From: Escherichia coli
GTDB lineage: Bacteria > Pseudomonadota > Gammaproteobacteria > Enterobacterales > Enterobacteriaceae
Assembly (NCBI RefSeq): GCF_003018255.1
Contig: NZ_CP027440.1
Direction: 5' to 3' (one strand)
Length of the DNA stretch: 64,000 nucleotides
A program made the translations under genes and the position numbers. Each line of letters opens with the position of its first letter. Within the stretch, counting starts at the first letter, position 1. The notes below the pieces were generated by a model. It was not told the origin of the DNA. It did not search any database and saw only the letters and a program-made list of their open reading frames with translations. Positions 36,818 to 44,514 of this stretch are shown in pieces.

Positions 36818-36893
<76 letters not shown>

Positions 36894-36932
36894 ACGATGC
36901 GTTTACGTACCAAATTTGCTGGGTGCAAAATT

Positions 36933-37008
<76 letters not shown>

Positions 37009-37030: not shown

Positions 37031-37059
37031 GACGGGCGGCATCATATGAATTCCGCCCG
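37031..37059 (-). promoter_or_regulatory. Candidate sigma70 promoter of alaW-alaX
   Basis: Minus strand reads TTGACA-17 bp-TATGAT followed by GC-rich discriminator GCCGCCC, about 25 nt upstream of the mature tRNA 5' end. Confidence 0.6.
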
Positions 37060-37243
37060 AATGTGTCAACGGCAAATTGCCACGTGTAGTTTCAATCGCT
37101 GAAAAATCAGGCAAATGAACAATTTTGGAAAACCGCTCGCATTCAGTAGTTATTCATGTCACGGTTTCCTGTAAAGTGGTGTTATAAAATGAACTACTAA
37201 TAGACCCACATACATTCAGGGAATTGTTATGTTCAAGGAGAGG

Positions 37244-37589: not shown

Positions 37590-37982
37590 ATGAAAAGATT
37601 ACGCAATAAAATGACCACCGAAGAACTGGCTGAATGCCTCGGTGTGGCTAAACAAACTGTTAACCGTTGGATCAGAGAAAAAGGCTGGAAAACGGAAAAA
37701 TTTCCCGGCGTGAAAGGCGGTCGTGCCAGACTTATTCTGGTCGATACGCAAGTTTGCGAGTTTATTCAGAACACGCCAGCCTTCCATAACACACCGATGC
37801 TTCTGGAAGCCGAAGAACCCCTTGCCGAATACGCACCGGGTATTCGCACTCCTGCTTATCGGCAAATCATCAGCGCAATAGACAACATGACTCACAGTGA
37901 GCAGGAAAAAGTTGCGCAATTTTTGTCACGCGAAGGAATTCGTAATTTCCTTGCTCGTCTCGACATAGATGAATCAGAATAA
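37590..37982 (+). CDS. yfeD: Small putative HTH DNA-binding protein (YfeC/YfeD family)
   Basis: 130-aa ORF starting 2 bp after yfeC stop; N-terminus MTTEELAECLGVAKQTVNRWIREKGW parallels yfeC. Confidence 0.85.
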   Translation: MKRLRNKMTTEELAECLGVAKQTVNRWIREKGWKTEKFPGVKGGRARLILVDTQVCEFIQNTPAFHNTPMLLEAEEPLAEYAPGIRTPAYRQIISAIDNMTHSEQEKVAQFLSREGIRNFLARLDIDESE

Positions 37983-37983
37983 A

Positions 37984-38024
37984 TAAAAAACGGCAGGGGT
38001 ATCTCTCCTGCCGTTTATCTTTTA
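37984..38024. terminator. Bidirectional intrinsic terminator between yfeD and gltX
   Basis: AAAAAA-CGGCAGG-GGTATCTCT-CCTGCCG-TTTATCTTTT. Confidence 0.75.
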
Positions 38025-38032
38025 TGCGCTAA

Positions 38033-39448
38033 TTATTGCTGATTTTCGCGTTCAGCAATAAAAGCCAGCGCTTTGTTGATACGCTCGATACTGCGGGTCT
38101 TACCGATTGCGTGAACGGTAACATCCAGCGCCGGAGACTGCCCCGCACCGGTTACGGCGACACGCAGCGGCATACCAACTTTACCCATACCCACTTCCAG
38201 CTCATCCGCCGTCGCCTGAATAGCGTGATGAACGTTTTCAGCGGTCCAGTCAGTAATCGCAGTCAGTTTGTCACGAACCACTTCCAGCGGCTGACGCGCT
38301 ACCGGACGCAGATGTTTTTTCGCGGCGTCGGCATCGAACTCAGCAAAATCTTCGTAGAAATAACGGCAGCTCTGTGCCATCTCTTTCAGCGTCTTGCAGC
38401 GTTCGCCCAGCAGTTTCACCAGATCAGCCAGCTGCGGGCCGTTACGGGTATCGATATTTTCCTGCTCAATGTGCCATTGTAAGTGAGTAGCAACATACTC
38501 CGGCGGCAGCGCGTTAATGTAGTGATGGTTCAGCCACAGCAGCTTGTCGGTGTTGAACGCACTGGCAGATTTGCTGACGGCATTCAGAGTGAAGTATTTG
38601 ATCATCTCTTCACGAGTGAAGATTTCCTGATCGCCGTGGGACCAGCCCAGACGCACCAGATAGTTCAGCAGTGCTTCTGGCAAATAACCGTCATCACGAT
38701 ACTGCATTACGCTGACCGCCCCGTGACGTTTGGACAGTTTTTTACCGTCATCGCCGTTGATCATAGAAACGTGCGCGTAAACCGGTACCGGCGCTTTCAG
38801 GGCTTTAAGAATGTTGATCTGGCGCGGCGTGTTGTTGATATGGTCTTCGCCACGGATAACATGGGTGATTTCCATATCCCAGTCATCAACAACCACACAG
38901 AAGTTATAGGTTGGGGAACCATCGGTACGGCGAATGATCAGATCATCCAGCTCCTGGTTGCTGAACTCAATCGGGCCACGGATCTGATCGTCAAAAACAA
39001 CAGAACCTTCCTGCGGGTTAGCAAAACGTACAACGCACGGTTCATCATCAGCATGATGCTCATGGCTGTGGCGGCAGCGACCGTCATAACGCGGCTTCTC
39101 ACCTTTCGCCATTTGCTCTTCGCGCAGCGCTTCCAGGCGCTCTTTAGAACAATAGCATTTATAAGCTGTGCCCTCTTCCAGCATCTGATCGATCACCGCG
39201 TTGTAGCGATCAAAACGTTTGGTCTGGTAGTACGGACCTTCATCCCACTCCAGGCTCAGCCAGTTCATGCCATCCATAATGGCTTCGATAGCTTCCGGCG
39301 TGGAACGCTCAAGATCGGTGTCTTCAATACGCAGCACGAACTCACCGCCGTGGTTACGTGCAAAAAGCCAGGAGTAAAGAGCAGTACGCGCGCCGCCAAC
39401 GTGCAGATAGCCTGTTGGGCTTGGCGCGAAGCGAGTTTTGATTTTCAT
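38033..39448 (-). CDS. gltX: Glutamyl-tRNA synthetase
   Basis: 471-aa ORF with class I HIGH motif ([12 protein letters not shown]) and KMSKS-type motif (KLSKR). Confidence 0.96.
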
Positions 39449-39661
39449 GAAATGGCCTTACGTTTAGAAAGATGCCGACAACCGGCAAATCCTGGAAAAA
39501 TTGAGTGGGCGATATTCTATCACTCCCGCCTGATTCCTCAATGTAGTTCGGGTTGCAACCTTACGCATTATTGTTTTCGTTGACAAATTGCGCAACACGG
39601 TCTGTTTTGCGATCATCTTGCTTAAATTTACGACGAACGAACAATTTCTTTAGAAAATGCG

Positions 39662-39689
39662 TTGACTCATTTTGAACTCTCCCTATAAT
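39662..39689 (+). promoter_or_regulatory. Near-consensus sigma70 promoter of the valU-valX-valY-lysV tRNA operon
   Basis: TTGACT (39662-39667), 16-bp spacer, TATAAT (39684-39689); A/T-rich UP-like region upstream; tRNA begins at 39707. Confidence 0.75.
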
Positions 39690-39706
39690 GCGACTCCACA
39701 CAGCGG

Positions 39707-39782
39707 GGGTGATTAGCTCAGCTGGGAGAGCACCTCCCTTACAAGGAGGGGGTCGGCGGTTCGATCCCGTCATCACCCACCA
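39707..39782 (+). tRNA. valU: tRNA-Val (anticodon UAC)
   Basis: 76-nt match to GGGTGATTAGCTCAGCTGGGAGAGCACCTCCCTTACAAGGAGGGGGTCGGCGGTTCGATCCCGTCATCACCCACCA. Confidence 0.95.
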
Positions 39783-39826
39783 ACTACTTTATGTAGTCTC
39801 CGCCGTGTAGCAAGAAATTGAGAAGT

Positions 39827-39902
39827 GGGTGATTAGCTCAGCTGGGAGAGCACCTCCCTTACAAGGAGGGGGTCGGCGGTTCGATCCCGTCATCACCCAC
39901 CA
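39827..39902 (+). tRNA. valX: tRNA-Val (anticodon UAC)
   Basis: Identical second copy. Confidence 0.95.
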
Positions 39903-39948
39903 CTTTCTCGCCAGCTAGATTTCTTGTAACAATGTGAAGTACCGAAGT

Positions 39949-40024
39949 GGGTGATTAGCTCAGCTGGGAGAGCACCTCCCTTACAAGGAGGGGGTCGGCG
40001 GTTCGATCCCGTCATCACCCACCA
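39949..40024 (+). tRNA. valY: tRNA-Val (anticodon UAC)
   Basis: Identical third copy. Confidence 0.95.
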
Positions 40025-40028
40025 CTTC

Positions 40029-40104
40029 GGGTCGTTAGCTCAGTTGGTAGAGCAGTTGACTTTTAATCAATTGGTCGCAGGTTCGAATCCTGCACGACCC
40101 ACCA
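40029..40104 (+). tRNA. lysV: tRNA-Lys (anticodon UUU)
   Basis: 76-nt match to GGGTCGTTAGCTCAGTTGGTAGAGCAGTTGACTTTTAATCAATTGGTCGCAGGTTCGAATCCTGCACGACCCACCA, 4 nt after valY. Confidence 0.95.
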
Positions 40105-40108
40105 ATGT

Positions 40109-40135
40109 AAAAAAGCGCCCTAAAGGCGCTTTTTT
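40109..40135 (+). terminator. Intrinsic terminator of the val-lys tRNA operon
   Basis: AAAAGCGCC-CTAA-AGGCGC-TTTTTT immediately after lysV. Confidence 0.8.
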
Positions 40136-40214
40136 GCTATCTGCAATTTGCGAAATTGCCTGATGCGCTTCGCTTATCAGACCAACTATGTCCGGCAGTT
40201 CCCGTGCCTCTCAT

Positions 40215-41099
40215 CTACTGCGCCAACGCCGCCAGCAGTTTAACCAGCGCGGGCGTCACCTGCTGCGTTTCATAAACAATATATAAGTCTGCCGGGATGC
40301 GTTCTTTGAGCGGACGGAATATGACACCGGGCCAGTTCATCTGCGCGTAGCTGTCCGCTATCAATGTGATACCAATACCCATACTGACCATGGCGAGTAC
40401 CGTTTGCGGTTCATTAACTTCGCGAATAACAACCGGTGAAAATCCCACCTGCTGGCAAACTCGCTGCAAAAAATCCCAGTCAGTGTACACGGGCGGCATT
40501 GTAACGAAATACTCGTCACGTAGCGCTTCCAGCGGGACGGTGGAAAATGATGAGAGATGATGCTCTTCAGGCATCGCCACCAGAAACGCCGATTCATGCA
40601 ACCGTAAGCTGGTAAAACCAGTCGGTGGTTCTGTCGCCATTCGCCAGATCCCGGCATCAAGTTCGCGGCGTTCCAGCAAGGCCATTTGCATCGCAGGCAT
40701 CTTTTCGCGAAACAGAACTTCAACGTTAGGATTTTCTCTAAGGAATCGCCGCATAACCGGGCGCATCCGTCCCCACATTGCCGTTCCCACAACCCCGAGT
40801 TCAATCCGCCCTGCTTCTCCCCGACCTATTTGTTCAACCCGAGCCAATACATTATTTGCATTCACCAACAATCGACGCGATTCTTCCATCAAGATTTTGC
40901 CCGCGTGTGTCAGTACGACGCTGCGCGAATGGCGAATAAAAAGCTGCGTGCCGAGTTGATTTTCCAGCTCTTTAATATGAATGCTGAGCGGAGGCTGAGA
41001 CATATTTAAACGCGCTGCTGCGCGACCAAAATGCAACTCTTCCGCTACGGCAAGAAAATAACGGAGCAACTTAAGATCTGTTCTGTATACGCGTTCCAT
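40215..41099 (-). CDS. xapR: LysR-family transcriptional activator of xapAB
   Basis: N-terminal LysR HTH (LKLLRYFLAVAEELHFGRAAARLNMSQPPLS); start at MERVYRTDL (294 aa), with an in-frame ATG at 41114 as an alternative. Confidence 0.88.
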   Translation of the reverse strand: MERVYRTDLKLLRYFLAVAEELHFGRAAARLNMSQPPLSIHIKELENQLGTQLFIRHSRSVVLTHAGKILMEESRRLLVNANNVLARVEQIGRGEAGRIELGVVGTAMWGRMRPVMRRFLRENPNVEVLFREKMPAMQMALLERRELDAGIWRMATEPPTGFTSLRLHESAFLVAMPEEHHLSSFSTVPLEALRDEYFVTMPPVYTDWDFLQRVCQQVGFSPVVIREVNEPQTVLAMVSMGIGITLIADSYAQMNWPGVIFRPLKERIPADLYIVYETQQVTPALVKLLAALAQ

Positions 41100-41350
41100 A
41101 ATTAAGTGCTCCATATAATAAATACATCGTATTAAATTATCATGGCATAAAGTATTTCACCACCAGATATCCGACATACATAAACACAATGGATAATATA
41201 CCCGGCAATACATTTGGAACAGGAATAGGTAATCGCACGATTGTAAACAAAGCACCAATGCCAAAACCAACGCCAGAAGAAAATAAAATATCTTTCACTA
41301 ATTAACCTTTATCATAAAAGCAGCCCCAAGGAACAGAGCTGCGAATCCTT

Positions 41351-42607
41351 TTAATGTGTAACTGAACGATGCGTTATCTTTTCAGGGTCATGGTTATATT
41401 TAAACCCAAAGAAAAATATCACTGCGAGGAAAAGAGCATACCCTGCAAACATCAGCCAAATGGTATGCCAATCTTTTACGCCATCCACCGAGAAGTAATC
41501 CACTGCCATACCGCTCAGAATCGAGCCAACCCATGCGCCGACGCCATTTACCATCGTCATAAAAAGGCCCTGGGCGCTGGCACGAATGCTGGAATCAACT
41601 TCCTGTTCGACAAAGACCGAACCAGAAATATTGAAGAAATCGAATGCACAACCGTAAACAATCATCGACAGCAACAGCAAAATAAACCCGGTTGGTGATG
41701 GATCGCCATAGGCAAAGAAGCCAAAGCGCAGCGTCCACGCCACCATACTCATCAGCATGACGGTTTTAATACCGAAACGCTTCAAAAAGAACGGTATCGT
41801 CAGAATGAAACCGACTTCAGCCATCTGTGAAACTGACAGTAAAATGGACGGGTATTTCACCACGAAGCTATCAGCAAACTCAGGATTACGGGCGAAATCA
41901 TGCAGGAACGGGTTGCCAAAAACGTTGGTAATTTGCAGCACCGCACCCAGCATCATGGCGAAGAGGAAAAAGATAGCCATGCGTGGATTTTTAAACAGCA
42001 CGAAGGCATCCAGACCCAGCTTGCTGGCAAGCGATGTAGTCGCTTTTTTCTCCGCAACCGGAATCTTCGGCAAAGTCAGCGCATAAGCCGACAGCAGCAA
42101 TGACGCACCGGACGCGATATACAGCTGCAGACTACTCAATTCCAGATGCAGCAGGCTTACTGCCCACATGGCGACAATGAACCCCACCGTACCAAAAACG
42201 CGAATGGGCGGGAAAGCGGTCACCGGGTCAAGCCCTGCCTGGGCAAGACAGGAATAAGAGACGCTGTTCGATAACGCAATAGTCGGCATAAACGCCATCG
42301 CATTGACTAACATCACCCAAAACATCATATCCGGATCAGTTACGGATGCCGCATAAAAAAGTACGCCCGCACACACCAGGTGACACAGCATGTATGCACG
42401 TTCTGCACGCAGCCATTTGTCTGCGATGATCCCCATTATACCAGGCATAATAATCGCGGCGATCCCTTTGGAACTGTAAACCATGCCAACATTAGCGCCG
42501 GTGAAATGAAGGGTATTAATCATGTAAGAACCGAGGGTAACCAGCCAGCTCCCCCAGATAAAATATTGCAAAAAGGACATTACCTTTAAGCGCAAAGCGA
42601 TGCTCAT
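41351..42607 (-). CDS. xapB: Xanthosine/nucleoside:H+ symporter (MFS)
   Basis: 418-aa polytopic ORF upstream of xapA on the same strand. Confidence 0.92.
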   Translation of the reverse strand: MSIALRLKVMSFLQYFIWGSWLVTLGSYMINTLHFTGANVGMVYSSKGIAAIIMPGIMGIIADKWLRAERAYMLCHLVCAGVLFYAASVTDPDMMFWVMLVNAMAFMPTIALSNSVSYSCLAQAGLDPVTAFPPIRVFGTVGFIVAMWAVSLLHLELSSLQLYIASGASLLLSAYALTLPKIPVAEKKATTSLASKLGLDAFVLFKNPRMAIFFLFAMMLGAVLQITNVFGNPFLHDFARNPEFADSFVVKYPSILLSVSQMAEVGFILTIPFFLKRFGIKTVMLMSMVAWTLRFGFFAYGDPSPTGFILLLLSMIVYGCAFDFFNISGSVFVEQEVDSSIRASAQGLFMTMVNGVGAWVGSILSGMAVDYFSVDGVKDWHTIWLMFAGYALFLAVIFFFGFKYNHDPEKITHRSVTH

Positions 42608-42667
42608 AATCGTTTCCTTGTCGCATCATATGGCCTCACTCAGTAAGGCCGTTTATTGTTGTTTTAC

Positions 42668-43501
42668 TCAGGCAATTTTGCGCAGAAAGCCGCAAATAAG
42701 ATTAATAAAGTTTTGCTTTGAGAGTTCCGCTGCTGCCAGCGTTTGGGCATGAGAAAGCTTCACGTCACTCAGACCTTCCGCCATGTTGGTAATCGCAGAG
42801 ACCGCAACGACTTTAAGTTCGCAATGGCGAGCTGAAATAACCTCAGGCACCACAGACATACCAACAACATCCCCACCAATAATTTGCATCATACGAATTT
42901 CCGCCGCAGTCTCGAAATTCGGCCCCGGATACGAGACGAACACGCCCTCCGTCAGAGGGAACCCCTCTTCTTTCGCCACTTTTTGTAACAGTGCGCGGTA
43001 TTCCGCATCGTAGGCATTCGCCAGCGAGAAGAAGCGCTCACCAAAACGTTCATCATTAAGACCCACCATCGGCGTTCCCGGCATGGTGTTGATGTGATCT
43101 TTCAATGCGACCAGACTGCCGGCCCCCACTTCAGGACGCAGTGAGCCAGCCGCATTGGTGCAGAACAGCAACTCGCAGCCCAGCAACTTAAAGGTACGGA
43201 TTGCATCCGTCATGATGGTCATCCCACGACCTTCGTAGAAATGTCCGCGACCTTTCATGCACGCCACTGGCACCCCCTGGAGATACCCCAGCACCAGCTC
43301 ACCCGCATGACCGTGTACGGTACTTACCGGGAACCCAGGCAGCTTTTCGTAGGAAATTGCGACCGCGTTCTCAATCTGATCGGCCAGCGCGCCCAGCCCG
43401 GAACCTAACATAAAGGCCACTCGTGGCGTGAAATCAGGTTTATAAGTCTTGATAATATCTACGCAATACAGTGGGTTATGAGAAAACTGAGCCTGAGACA
43501 T
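42668..43501 (-). CDS. xapA: Purine nucleoside phosphorylase II (xanthosine phosphorylase)
   Basis: 277-aa ORF of the PNP/MTAP family. Confidence 0.93.
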   Translation of the reverse strand: MSQAQFSHNPLYCVDIIKTYKPDFTPRVAFMLGSGLGALADQIENAVAISYEKLPGFPVSTVHGHAGELVLGYLQGVPVACMKGRGHFYEGRGMTIMTDAIRTFKLLGCELLFCTNAAGSLRPEVGAGSLVALKDHINTMPGTPMVGLNDERFGERFFSLANAYDAEYRALLQKVAKEEGFPLTEGVFVSYPGPNFETAAEIRMMQIIGGDVVGMSVVPEVISARHCELKVVAVSAITNMAEGLSDVKLSHAQTLAAAELSKQNFINLICGFLRKIA

Positions 43502-43749
43502 ATATATCCTTTTTTTGTAGGGTGGAATCTAACGCCTTTTTATAACGAGATTGCCCTACCTCATACCAATACACTTTTTTCATGTATCCGATAGTTATTC
43601 GATATCGATATATTTATATTTTTTCACTATTAATAGGCTGAAAAAACTGTATTGGTACTCTCCTTTCCCTTGCATTAACAATATGCCGCTTTTAATCAAC
43701 CTTTTTATTAAGCAATCAACTAATAACGATCGGCATAGGGAATTATGCT

Positions 43750-44514
43750 ATGAAAAAACATCTTTTTACTCTGACACTCTCTTCTGTATTGGCGATACCA
43801 GCAGTATCCCATGCAGAATTTAAAGGCGGTTTTGCTGATATAGGTATTCATTATCTTGACTGGACTAGCAGAACCACTGAGAAATCGTCGACCAAATCAC
43901 ACAAAGATGATTTTGGATATCTGGAACTGGAAGGCGGCGCTAACTTTAGTTGGGGAGAAATGTACGGGTTCTTCGACTGGGAAAACTTTTATAATGATCG
44001 TCATGATAAACCGGGTAGCGAGCAGCGTTATACCTTTAAAAATACCAACCGTATTTACCTGGGTGACACCGGATTTAATCTCTACTTGCATGCGTATGGC
44101 ACCTACGGTTCTGCGAATCGCGTGAATTTCCATGACGATATGTTCCTTTACGGTATCGGCTACAATTTCACCGGCAGCGGTTGGTGGTTCAAACCGTTCT
44201 TTGCAAAACGCTATACAGACCAAACCTATTATACCGGCGATAACGGTTATGTCGCCGGTTGGGTTGCAGGTTACAGCTTTATGCTGGGCAGTGAGAAATT
44301 CACCCTCACCAACTGGAACGAGTACGAGTTTGATCGTGATGCCACCTACGCGGCAGGTAATGGCGGCAAAGAAGGTCTGAACGGTGCCGTCGCACTTTGG
44401 TGGAATGCAACTTCACACATCACCACAGGAATTCAGTATCGTTATGCGGATGACAAACTGGGCGAAGATTTTTACCAGGATGCAATAATCTACTCCATCA
44501 AATTTAATTTCTGA
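43750..44514 (+). CDS. yfeN: Putative outer-membrane beta-barrel protein
   Basis: 254-aa ORF; signal peptide (MKKHLFTLTLSSVLAIPAVSHA), aromatic-rich alternating pattern, C-terminal Phe (IKFNF). Confidence 0.82.
   Translation: MKKHLFTLTLSSVLAIPAVSHAEFKGGFADIGIHYLDWTSRTTEKSSTKSHKDDFGYLELEGGANFSWGEMYGFFDWENFYNDRHDKPGSEQRYTFKNTNRIYLGDTGFNLYLHAYGTYGSANRVNFHDDMFLYGIGYNFTGSGWWFKPFFAKRYTDQTYYTGDNGYVAGWVAGYSFMLGSEKFTLTNWNEYEFDRDATYAAGNGGKEGLNGAVALWWNATSHITTGIQYRYADDKLGEDFYQDAIIYSIKFNF

Follow-up and report, generated by a model that had tools for sequence, protein, structure and literature searches.

The valU-valX-valY-lysV tRNA operon of Escherichia coli: a promoter core conserved across Enterobacterales and a trailer that varies among strains

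Gene content and identity of the locus

The locus lies within a 64-kb stretch of Escherichia coli DNA, referred to here as the window. ARAGORN predicted four tRNA genes on the + strand, three with the anticodon tac and one with ttt, and Rfam RF00005 recovered the same four, scoring 65.9 bits for each valine gene and 79.2 bits for the lysine gene (gathering score, 29 bits). In agreement with the K-12 annotation, these genes are valU (39707-39782), valX (39827-39902) and valY (39949-40024), each specifying tRNA-Val(UAC), and lysV (40029-40104), specifying tRNA-Lys(UUU). The three tRNA-Val genes are identical at 76/76 nt. Spacers of 44, 46 and 4 nt separate the genes in order, the last of which, between valY and lysV, reads CTTC (40025-40028, +). 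The initial annotation had described exactly this content, with three identical valine genes, one lysine gene and only 4 nt between the last two, and its tRNA calls hold under both programs. Two open reading frames, at 39561-39776 (-) and 39951-40163 (+), are mechanical ORFs inside the tRNA genes and were dismissed. Between 36000 and 42000, a search for non-tRNA RNA families at E <= 1 returned nothing beyond sub-threshold matches overlapping the tRNA genes (tmRNA_permuted, Plastid-ycf2 and Leu_leader), which fall far below their gathering scores and were set aside as noise.

On the opposite strand, with its ATG 258 nt from the 5' end of valU, is gltX (38033-39448, -), encoding the 471-aa glutamate--tRNA ligase; the assignment follows from RefSeq annotations and a match to TIGR00464 at 704 bits (cutoff, 290 bits), which agrees with the earlier naming of the divergent neighbour as glutamyl-tRNA synthetase. 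In one other strain, O157:H7 WS4202, an IS200/IS605 tnpA/tnpB pair sits between yfeD and gltX. The convergent downstream neighbour is xapR (40215-41114, -), the LysR-type activator of xapAB, which matches NF007439 at 533 bits. This alignment begins at residue 6, and K-12 xapR is annotated at 294 aa; the real start is probably five codons inside the ORF, as in K-12. Beyond it follow xapB (TIGR00889) and xapA (TIGR01699), both assigned with NCBIfam.

A 1-kb query spanning 39400-40400 matched all but one of 5426 complete E. coli genomes (5425) and agreed at every base (100% identity) with several complete chromosomes of the species, whose annotation at this place reads gltX, three tRNA-Val genes, one tRNA-Lys gene and xapR. 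In K-12 MG1655 the order is gltX (b2400), valU, valX, valY and lysV (b2401-b2404) and xapR (b2405), with alaX-alaW and yfeC-yfeD upstream and xapB-xapA downstream, and the operon occupies NC_000913.3 2520931-2521328. The window presents the same arrangement: tRNA-Lys(UUU) comes after a run of three tRNA-Val(UAC) genes on the same strand, all in sequences identical to those of K-12; the chromosomal site is that between divergent gltX and xapR; and alaX-alaW and yfeC-yfeD again lie farther upstream. Over the interval that begins at 39597 and ends with the first terminator, only two bases differ from K-12, both in the valX-valY spacer; promoter, leader and all four tRNA genes are the same, and three further single-base differences lie near gltX. 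The likeness to the K-12 valU operon thus extends to gene content, order, CTTC junction, promoter, leader, first terminator and the orientation of gltX and xapR. Given the perfect 1-kb match to annotated E. coli genomes and the correspondence to K-12 b2400-b2405, we hold it to be almost certain that the locus is the chromosomal E. coli valU-valX-valY-lysV tRNA operon, with a strong sigma-70 promoter and a terminator. The feature is already characterised, with its promoter and RNase P pathway published, and no sequence feature contradicts its identity as the valU operon.

The xapR flank and the trailer after lysV

Between lysV and xapR there are 110 nt, which hold the terminator and a REP-like palindrome. 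For the window, the earlier statement that xapR follows the operon directly, with no inserted island, stands on both counts: xapR is the adjacent gene, and the sequence is collinear with K-12 through xapR-xapB-xapA, over ~4 kb and to at least 44123. The lysV 3' end, which an att repeat would duplicate, occurs only once in the 64-kb window, and no insert bounded by such a repeat, as expected of a tRNA-associated island, was found there. What had gone unremarked is that strains differ in the trailer behind lysV. The imperfect palindrome, GCCTGATGCGCTTCGCTTATCAGACC (40156-40187, no strand), is located between the terminator and the xapR stop; it is a putative REP element by its likeness to the REP consensus. 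Its core, GCC[TG]GATGCG, occurs at four sites in the window, the other three being at 372 (-), 31480 and 57281.

After its first terminator, K-12 carries an extra 156-bp unit (K-12 locus L001 4830-4985) that is missing from the corresponding stretch of the window, 40105-40150. This unit comprises, in order, an RtT-family element (RF00391, 47.3 bits), a duplicate of the final 18 nt of lysV and another terminator identical to the first. K-12 has one RtT match, whereas in the window none was found between 36000 and 42000 at E <= 1, nor at the gathering score. A K-12-type query was covered over at least 80% of its length in ~2278 of 5426 E. coli genomes, and an RtT-type unit is present in roughly 40%; the arrangement of the window, with no RtT unit and xapR adjacent, accounts for ~43% of genomes by a rough count from 40 evenly spaced matches. 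The K-12-type alleles resemble the tyrT-rtT locus, at which RtT repeats come after the tRNA gene: their RtT-family unit lies behind lysV and closes with a duplicate of the tRNA 3' end, the pattern described for tyrT. The window differs from tyrT-rtT, which has RtT repeats, in being without any RtT match. That carrying or lacking the 156-bp RtT-like unit makes a functional difference is, in our estimation, a doubtful proposition with perhaps an outside chance of being right; if true, the single terminator between lysV and xapR in the short allele could alter read-through, the removal of the terminator by RNase P and the formation of the xapR 3' end.

Variation on this side of the operon is not confined to the trailer, and it bears on whether lysV is an integration or recombination boundary, with the xap genes an accessory segment and not core neighbours. 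Of 5426 complete E. coli genomes, 4088 possess xapR, leaving ~25% without it. In O157:H7 WS4202 (L002 6705-8083), the genes next after lysV are a FlxA-like one and a yfeR pseudogene, and xapR-xapB-xapA-yfeN are absent; outside E. coli, xapR follows lysV in some genera only, among the matches listed. Divergence from K-12 is also higher after lysV, at 93.4% identity versus 97.3%. However, the lysV 3' end is not directly repeated within the 64-kb window, the compared stretch is collinear with K-12, and the distribution of xapR fits deletion in some lineages equally well. We therefore regard a boundary at lysV as unlikely, and it would in any case touch the flank of the operon and not its identity or function.

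Divergence from K-12 is uneven on both sides of the operon. Positions 37800-37999, which cover the 3' end of yfeD and the adjoining intergenic sequence, are identical to K-12 at 161 of 200 positions, and much of xapB-xapA (41243-44042) is at 85-93% identity, with the gltX-valU region at ~99%. This patchiness suggests mosaic recombination.

Terminator, transcript and RNA processing

An intrinsic terminator is found at 40107-40137 (+), consisting of a GCGCC-CTAAA-GGCGC stem-loop set between A6 and T6. The stem arms, GCGCC at 40115-40119 and GGCGC at 40125-40129, are extended by A6/U6, and the T run occupies 40130-40135. The predicted fold has a dG of -19.1 kcal/mol (z = -6.4), a stability that 0 of 200 shuffles attained. 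A simple terminator scan had reported no + strand terminator after lysV, a false negative refuted by the folding, and probably missed the hairpin since the T run is taken up into its A/T-extended stem. The element has the G+C-rich hairpin and following U run of a Rho-independent terminator and, ending at 40135, vindicates the strong terminator that had been placed at the end of the operon. From the A6/T6 symmetry, it is potentially bidirectional, acting also towards xapR.

All mapping and processing experiments drawn on here were made in K-12, a strain other than that of the window. The full-length K-12 operon transcript measures ~438 nt (PMC4176162; Agrawal, Mohanty and Kushner, NAR 2014), and the distance from the published start, 39698 in our coordinates, to the end of the T run at 40135 is likewise 438 nt; the position of the terminator thus fits the observed species. 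The first step of processing in K-12 is the removal of the terminator by RNase P, with a U|G cut 2-3 nt after the lysV CCA (PMC4176162), which corresponds to U40106|G40107 in the window. Processing by RNase P proceeds in the 3'->5' direction; the CUUC spacer does not qualify as a canonical RNase E site, and the lysV 5' end is cut by RNase P, with RNase E in a minor backup role only (PMC4176162). Long 3' tails are trimmed by RNase II and PNPase, and the 3' ends are finished by RNase PH for the Val tRNAs and by RNase T for the Lys tRNA (PMC4176162). By extension to the window, the sigma-70 promoter would initiate at ~39698 and yield a ~438-nt primary transcript that stops at the terminator ending at 40135; this transcript would then undergo removal of the terminator by RNase P, followed by 3' trimming and finishing as in K-12.

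The lysT cluster offers a close comparison. It shares the same tRNA-Val(UAC) and tRNA-Lys(UUU) sequences, an identical terminator and 3'-to-5' processing by RNase P (PMC4176162), and its Val-to-Lys junctions are also very short, CC and CUC as against CTTC between valY and lysV. It differs in that a Lys gene comes first, in having seven genes with spacers of 133-150 nt after the Lys genes, and in its chromosomal site and neighbours. This cluster was split into four transcripts in earlier literature, as noted in PMC4176162, and weak promoters could conceivably be hidden between identical tandem genes set 44-46 nt apart, so that the four tRNAs of the window might not form one transcription unit, some being driven from the spacers or by read-in from upstream. 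Yet a consensus scan of the spacers found no promoter-like site on the + strand, and Northern blots of the K-12 operon display the ~438-nt full-length species together with intermediates shortened by one tRNA each (PMC4176162). The upstream promoter is, moreover, the only one conserved across genera, among the matches listed. Separate transcription of some of the genes is accordingly very improbable, and the four tRNAs are best treated as a single unit read from the promoter before valU.

Promoter and upstream region

The operon is preceded by a sigma-70 promoter (39662-39689, +) with the -35 hexamer TTGACT at 39662-39667, a 16-bp spacer and the -10 hexamer TATAAT at 39684-39689, matching 11 of 12 consensus positions in a consensus scan. 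Both strands of the whole 64-kb window together contain only two such 11/12 sites, this one included. The other, TTGACA-17-TATGAT (37041-37069, -), lies directly upstream of alaW-alaX, two tRNA-Ala(GGC) genes at 36818-37008. An enrichment of promoter-like matches in the window was considered and rejected, as block shuffles gave ~1.06 such sites against the 2 observed, which is not significant by count. The case for the promoter consequently rests on its position, its conservation and the published mapping. As to position, both 11/12 sites are placed directly upstream of tRNA operons, a placement unlike chance.

The K-12 operon is transcribed from a start 9 nt before the first base of valU, or 7 nt according to EcoCyc (PMC4176162). 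In window coordinates this is A39698 or, alternatively, A39700, 9-11 nt after TATAAT. A single promoter with a start 7-9 nt before valU is accordingly predicted for the window: the start was mapped in K-12, and the promoter sequence is shared. The mapping agrees with the promoter that the initial annotation had proposed to drive the operon. Between the -10 hexamer and the start is a G+C-rich discriminator, GCGACTCC (39690-39697, +), near-invariant in the aligned intergenic sequences, and from A39698 a 9-nt 5' leader runs to 39706 and is cut off by RNase P.

Adjoining the -35 hexamer is an A/T-rich, UP-element-like region, AACAATTTCTTTAGAAAATGCG (39641-39661, +), to which we assign a putative UP function. 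Further upstream, a conserved block (39620-39640, no strand) holds a FIS-consensus-like 15-mer, GCTTAAATTTACGAC (39620-39634), centred at -71 relative to the start at 39698. FIS is predicted to bind around -71, from this motif and from the title of one study. That study, Champagne & Lapointe 1998, reportedly deals with FIS at the divergent gltX and valU promoters, and it is said to be, with Brun et al. 1990, the primary paper on promoter control. Reading in the other direction, a candidate gltX promoter, TTGAGG-16-TAGAAT with a TG extension (39514-39541, -), emerged from the consensus scan and from conservation; this site is probably a gltX promoter.

Conservation across Enterobacterales

To place the operon in a wider context, we scanned 100,044 species genomes for a Val 3' end joined to a Lys 5' end across a gap of 0-30 nt and obtained at least 120 stretches. 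All of these Val/Lys junctions, among the matches listed, belong to Enterobacterales. The CTTC junction was seen at least 57 times among the matches listed, mostly in Val-Val-Val-Lys arrays (at least 36 loci); arrays with one, two, four or five Val copies were also present among them, as were CTC and CC junctions in lysT-type arrays. Across Enterobacterales, the number of tandem Val(UAC) copies before Lys thus ranges from 1 to 5 among the matches listed, and some E. coli genomes have two Val(UAC) genes instead of three. Such variation is as expected from recombination between identical repeats. Two genomes among the matches listed (L108 and L010) contain a tandem pair of promoter-bearing Val...Lys units, each with its own TTGACT-16-TATAAT and the second with a slightly different spacer; since each unit has its own promoter, these appear to be duplications of the whole operon, promoter included.

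Among the matches listed, 57 loci span the gltX start as well as the first Val gene, and in 54 of them TTGACW-16-TATAAT occurs 15-19 nt before the first Val gene. The divergent gltX is usually ~246-261 nt from the first Val gene, with a few loci further away, again among the matches listed. Alignment of the 51 distinct intergenic sequences among these matches revealed an invariant TATAAT and a TTGACT that is invariant except for its last base (at least 90%), separated by a variable spacer. Nearly all of the discriminator and leader is invariant in the same 51 sequences; upstream, positions 39624-39640 are 90-100% conserved, and the AAAA at 39654-39657 is invariant. On the gltX side, the candidate -10 region (39512-39523) is near-invariant across genera in this set. 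Invariant hexamers with a variable spacer are the footprint expected of a functional promoter. The notion that the promoter match is a chance consensus, with the real promoter elsewhere in the 258-nt intergenic region, draws on the roughly one 11/12 match per 64 kb, both strands, in shuffled sequence, but it is next to negligible and effectively refuted already by the published start 9-11 nt after TATAAT (PMC4176162), by the essentially invariant hexamers in the 51 distinct sequences from many genera among the matches listed, and by the siting of both 11/12 matches before tRNA operons.

Likeness to rrnB P1 and implications

The valU promoter has the near-consensus hexamers, 16-bp spacer and G+C-rich discriminator of a stable-RNA promoter; upstream, the conserved A/T-rich block and the FIS-like 15-mer centred at -71 may correspond to the UP element and FIS sites of this class. 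With rrnB P1 it shares the 16-bp spacer, the sequence CTCCCTATAATGCG..CCAC, and a consensus TATAAT preceded by CTCCC, as well as a GCG-led G+C-rich discriminator, a start ~9 nt after the -10 hexamer and an A/T-rich upstream region. The -35 hexamers differ, TTGACT in the valU promoter versus TTGTCA in rrnB P1; overall, 42 of 80 positions are identical, and the upstream sequences are otherwise unrelated. Promoters of the rrn P1 type form short-lived open complexes and respond to growth rate, to ppGpp/DksA and to the concentration of the initiating NTP. By analogy, short-lived open complexes and a response to the initiating NTP are predicted for the valU promoter, which is probably subject to similar control by growth rate and ppGpp/DksA, and the position of the FIS-like motif suggests that it is probably activated by FIS around -71. 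The 258-nt control region would then be common to the valU promoter and the divergent gltX promoters.

E. coli has five genes for tRNA-Val1 and six for tRNA-Lys, of which the operon contributes three and one, respectively, and it is a textbook locus: its promoter, its FIS-linked divergent layout with gltX and its processing by RNase P are all in print already. The present analysis validates the reading of the sequence and documents the conservation of the promoter core and the CTTC junction across many genera of Enterobacterales. It also documents differences in the trailer that follows lysV among E. coli strains.
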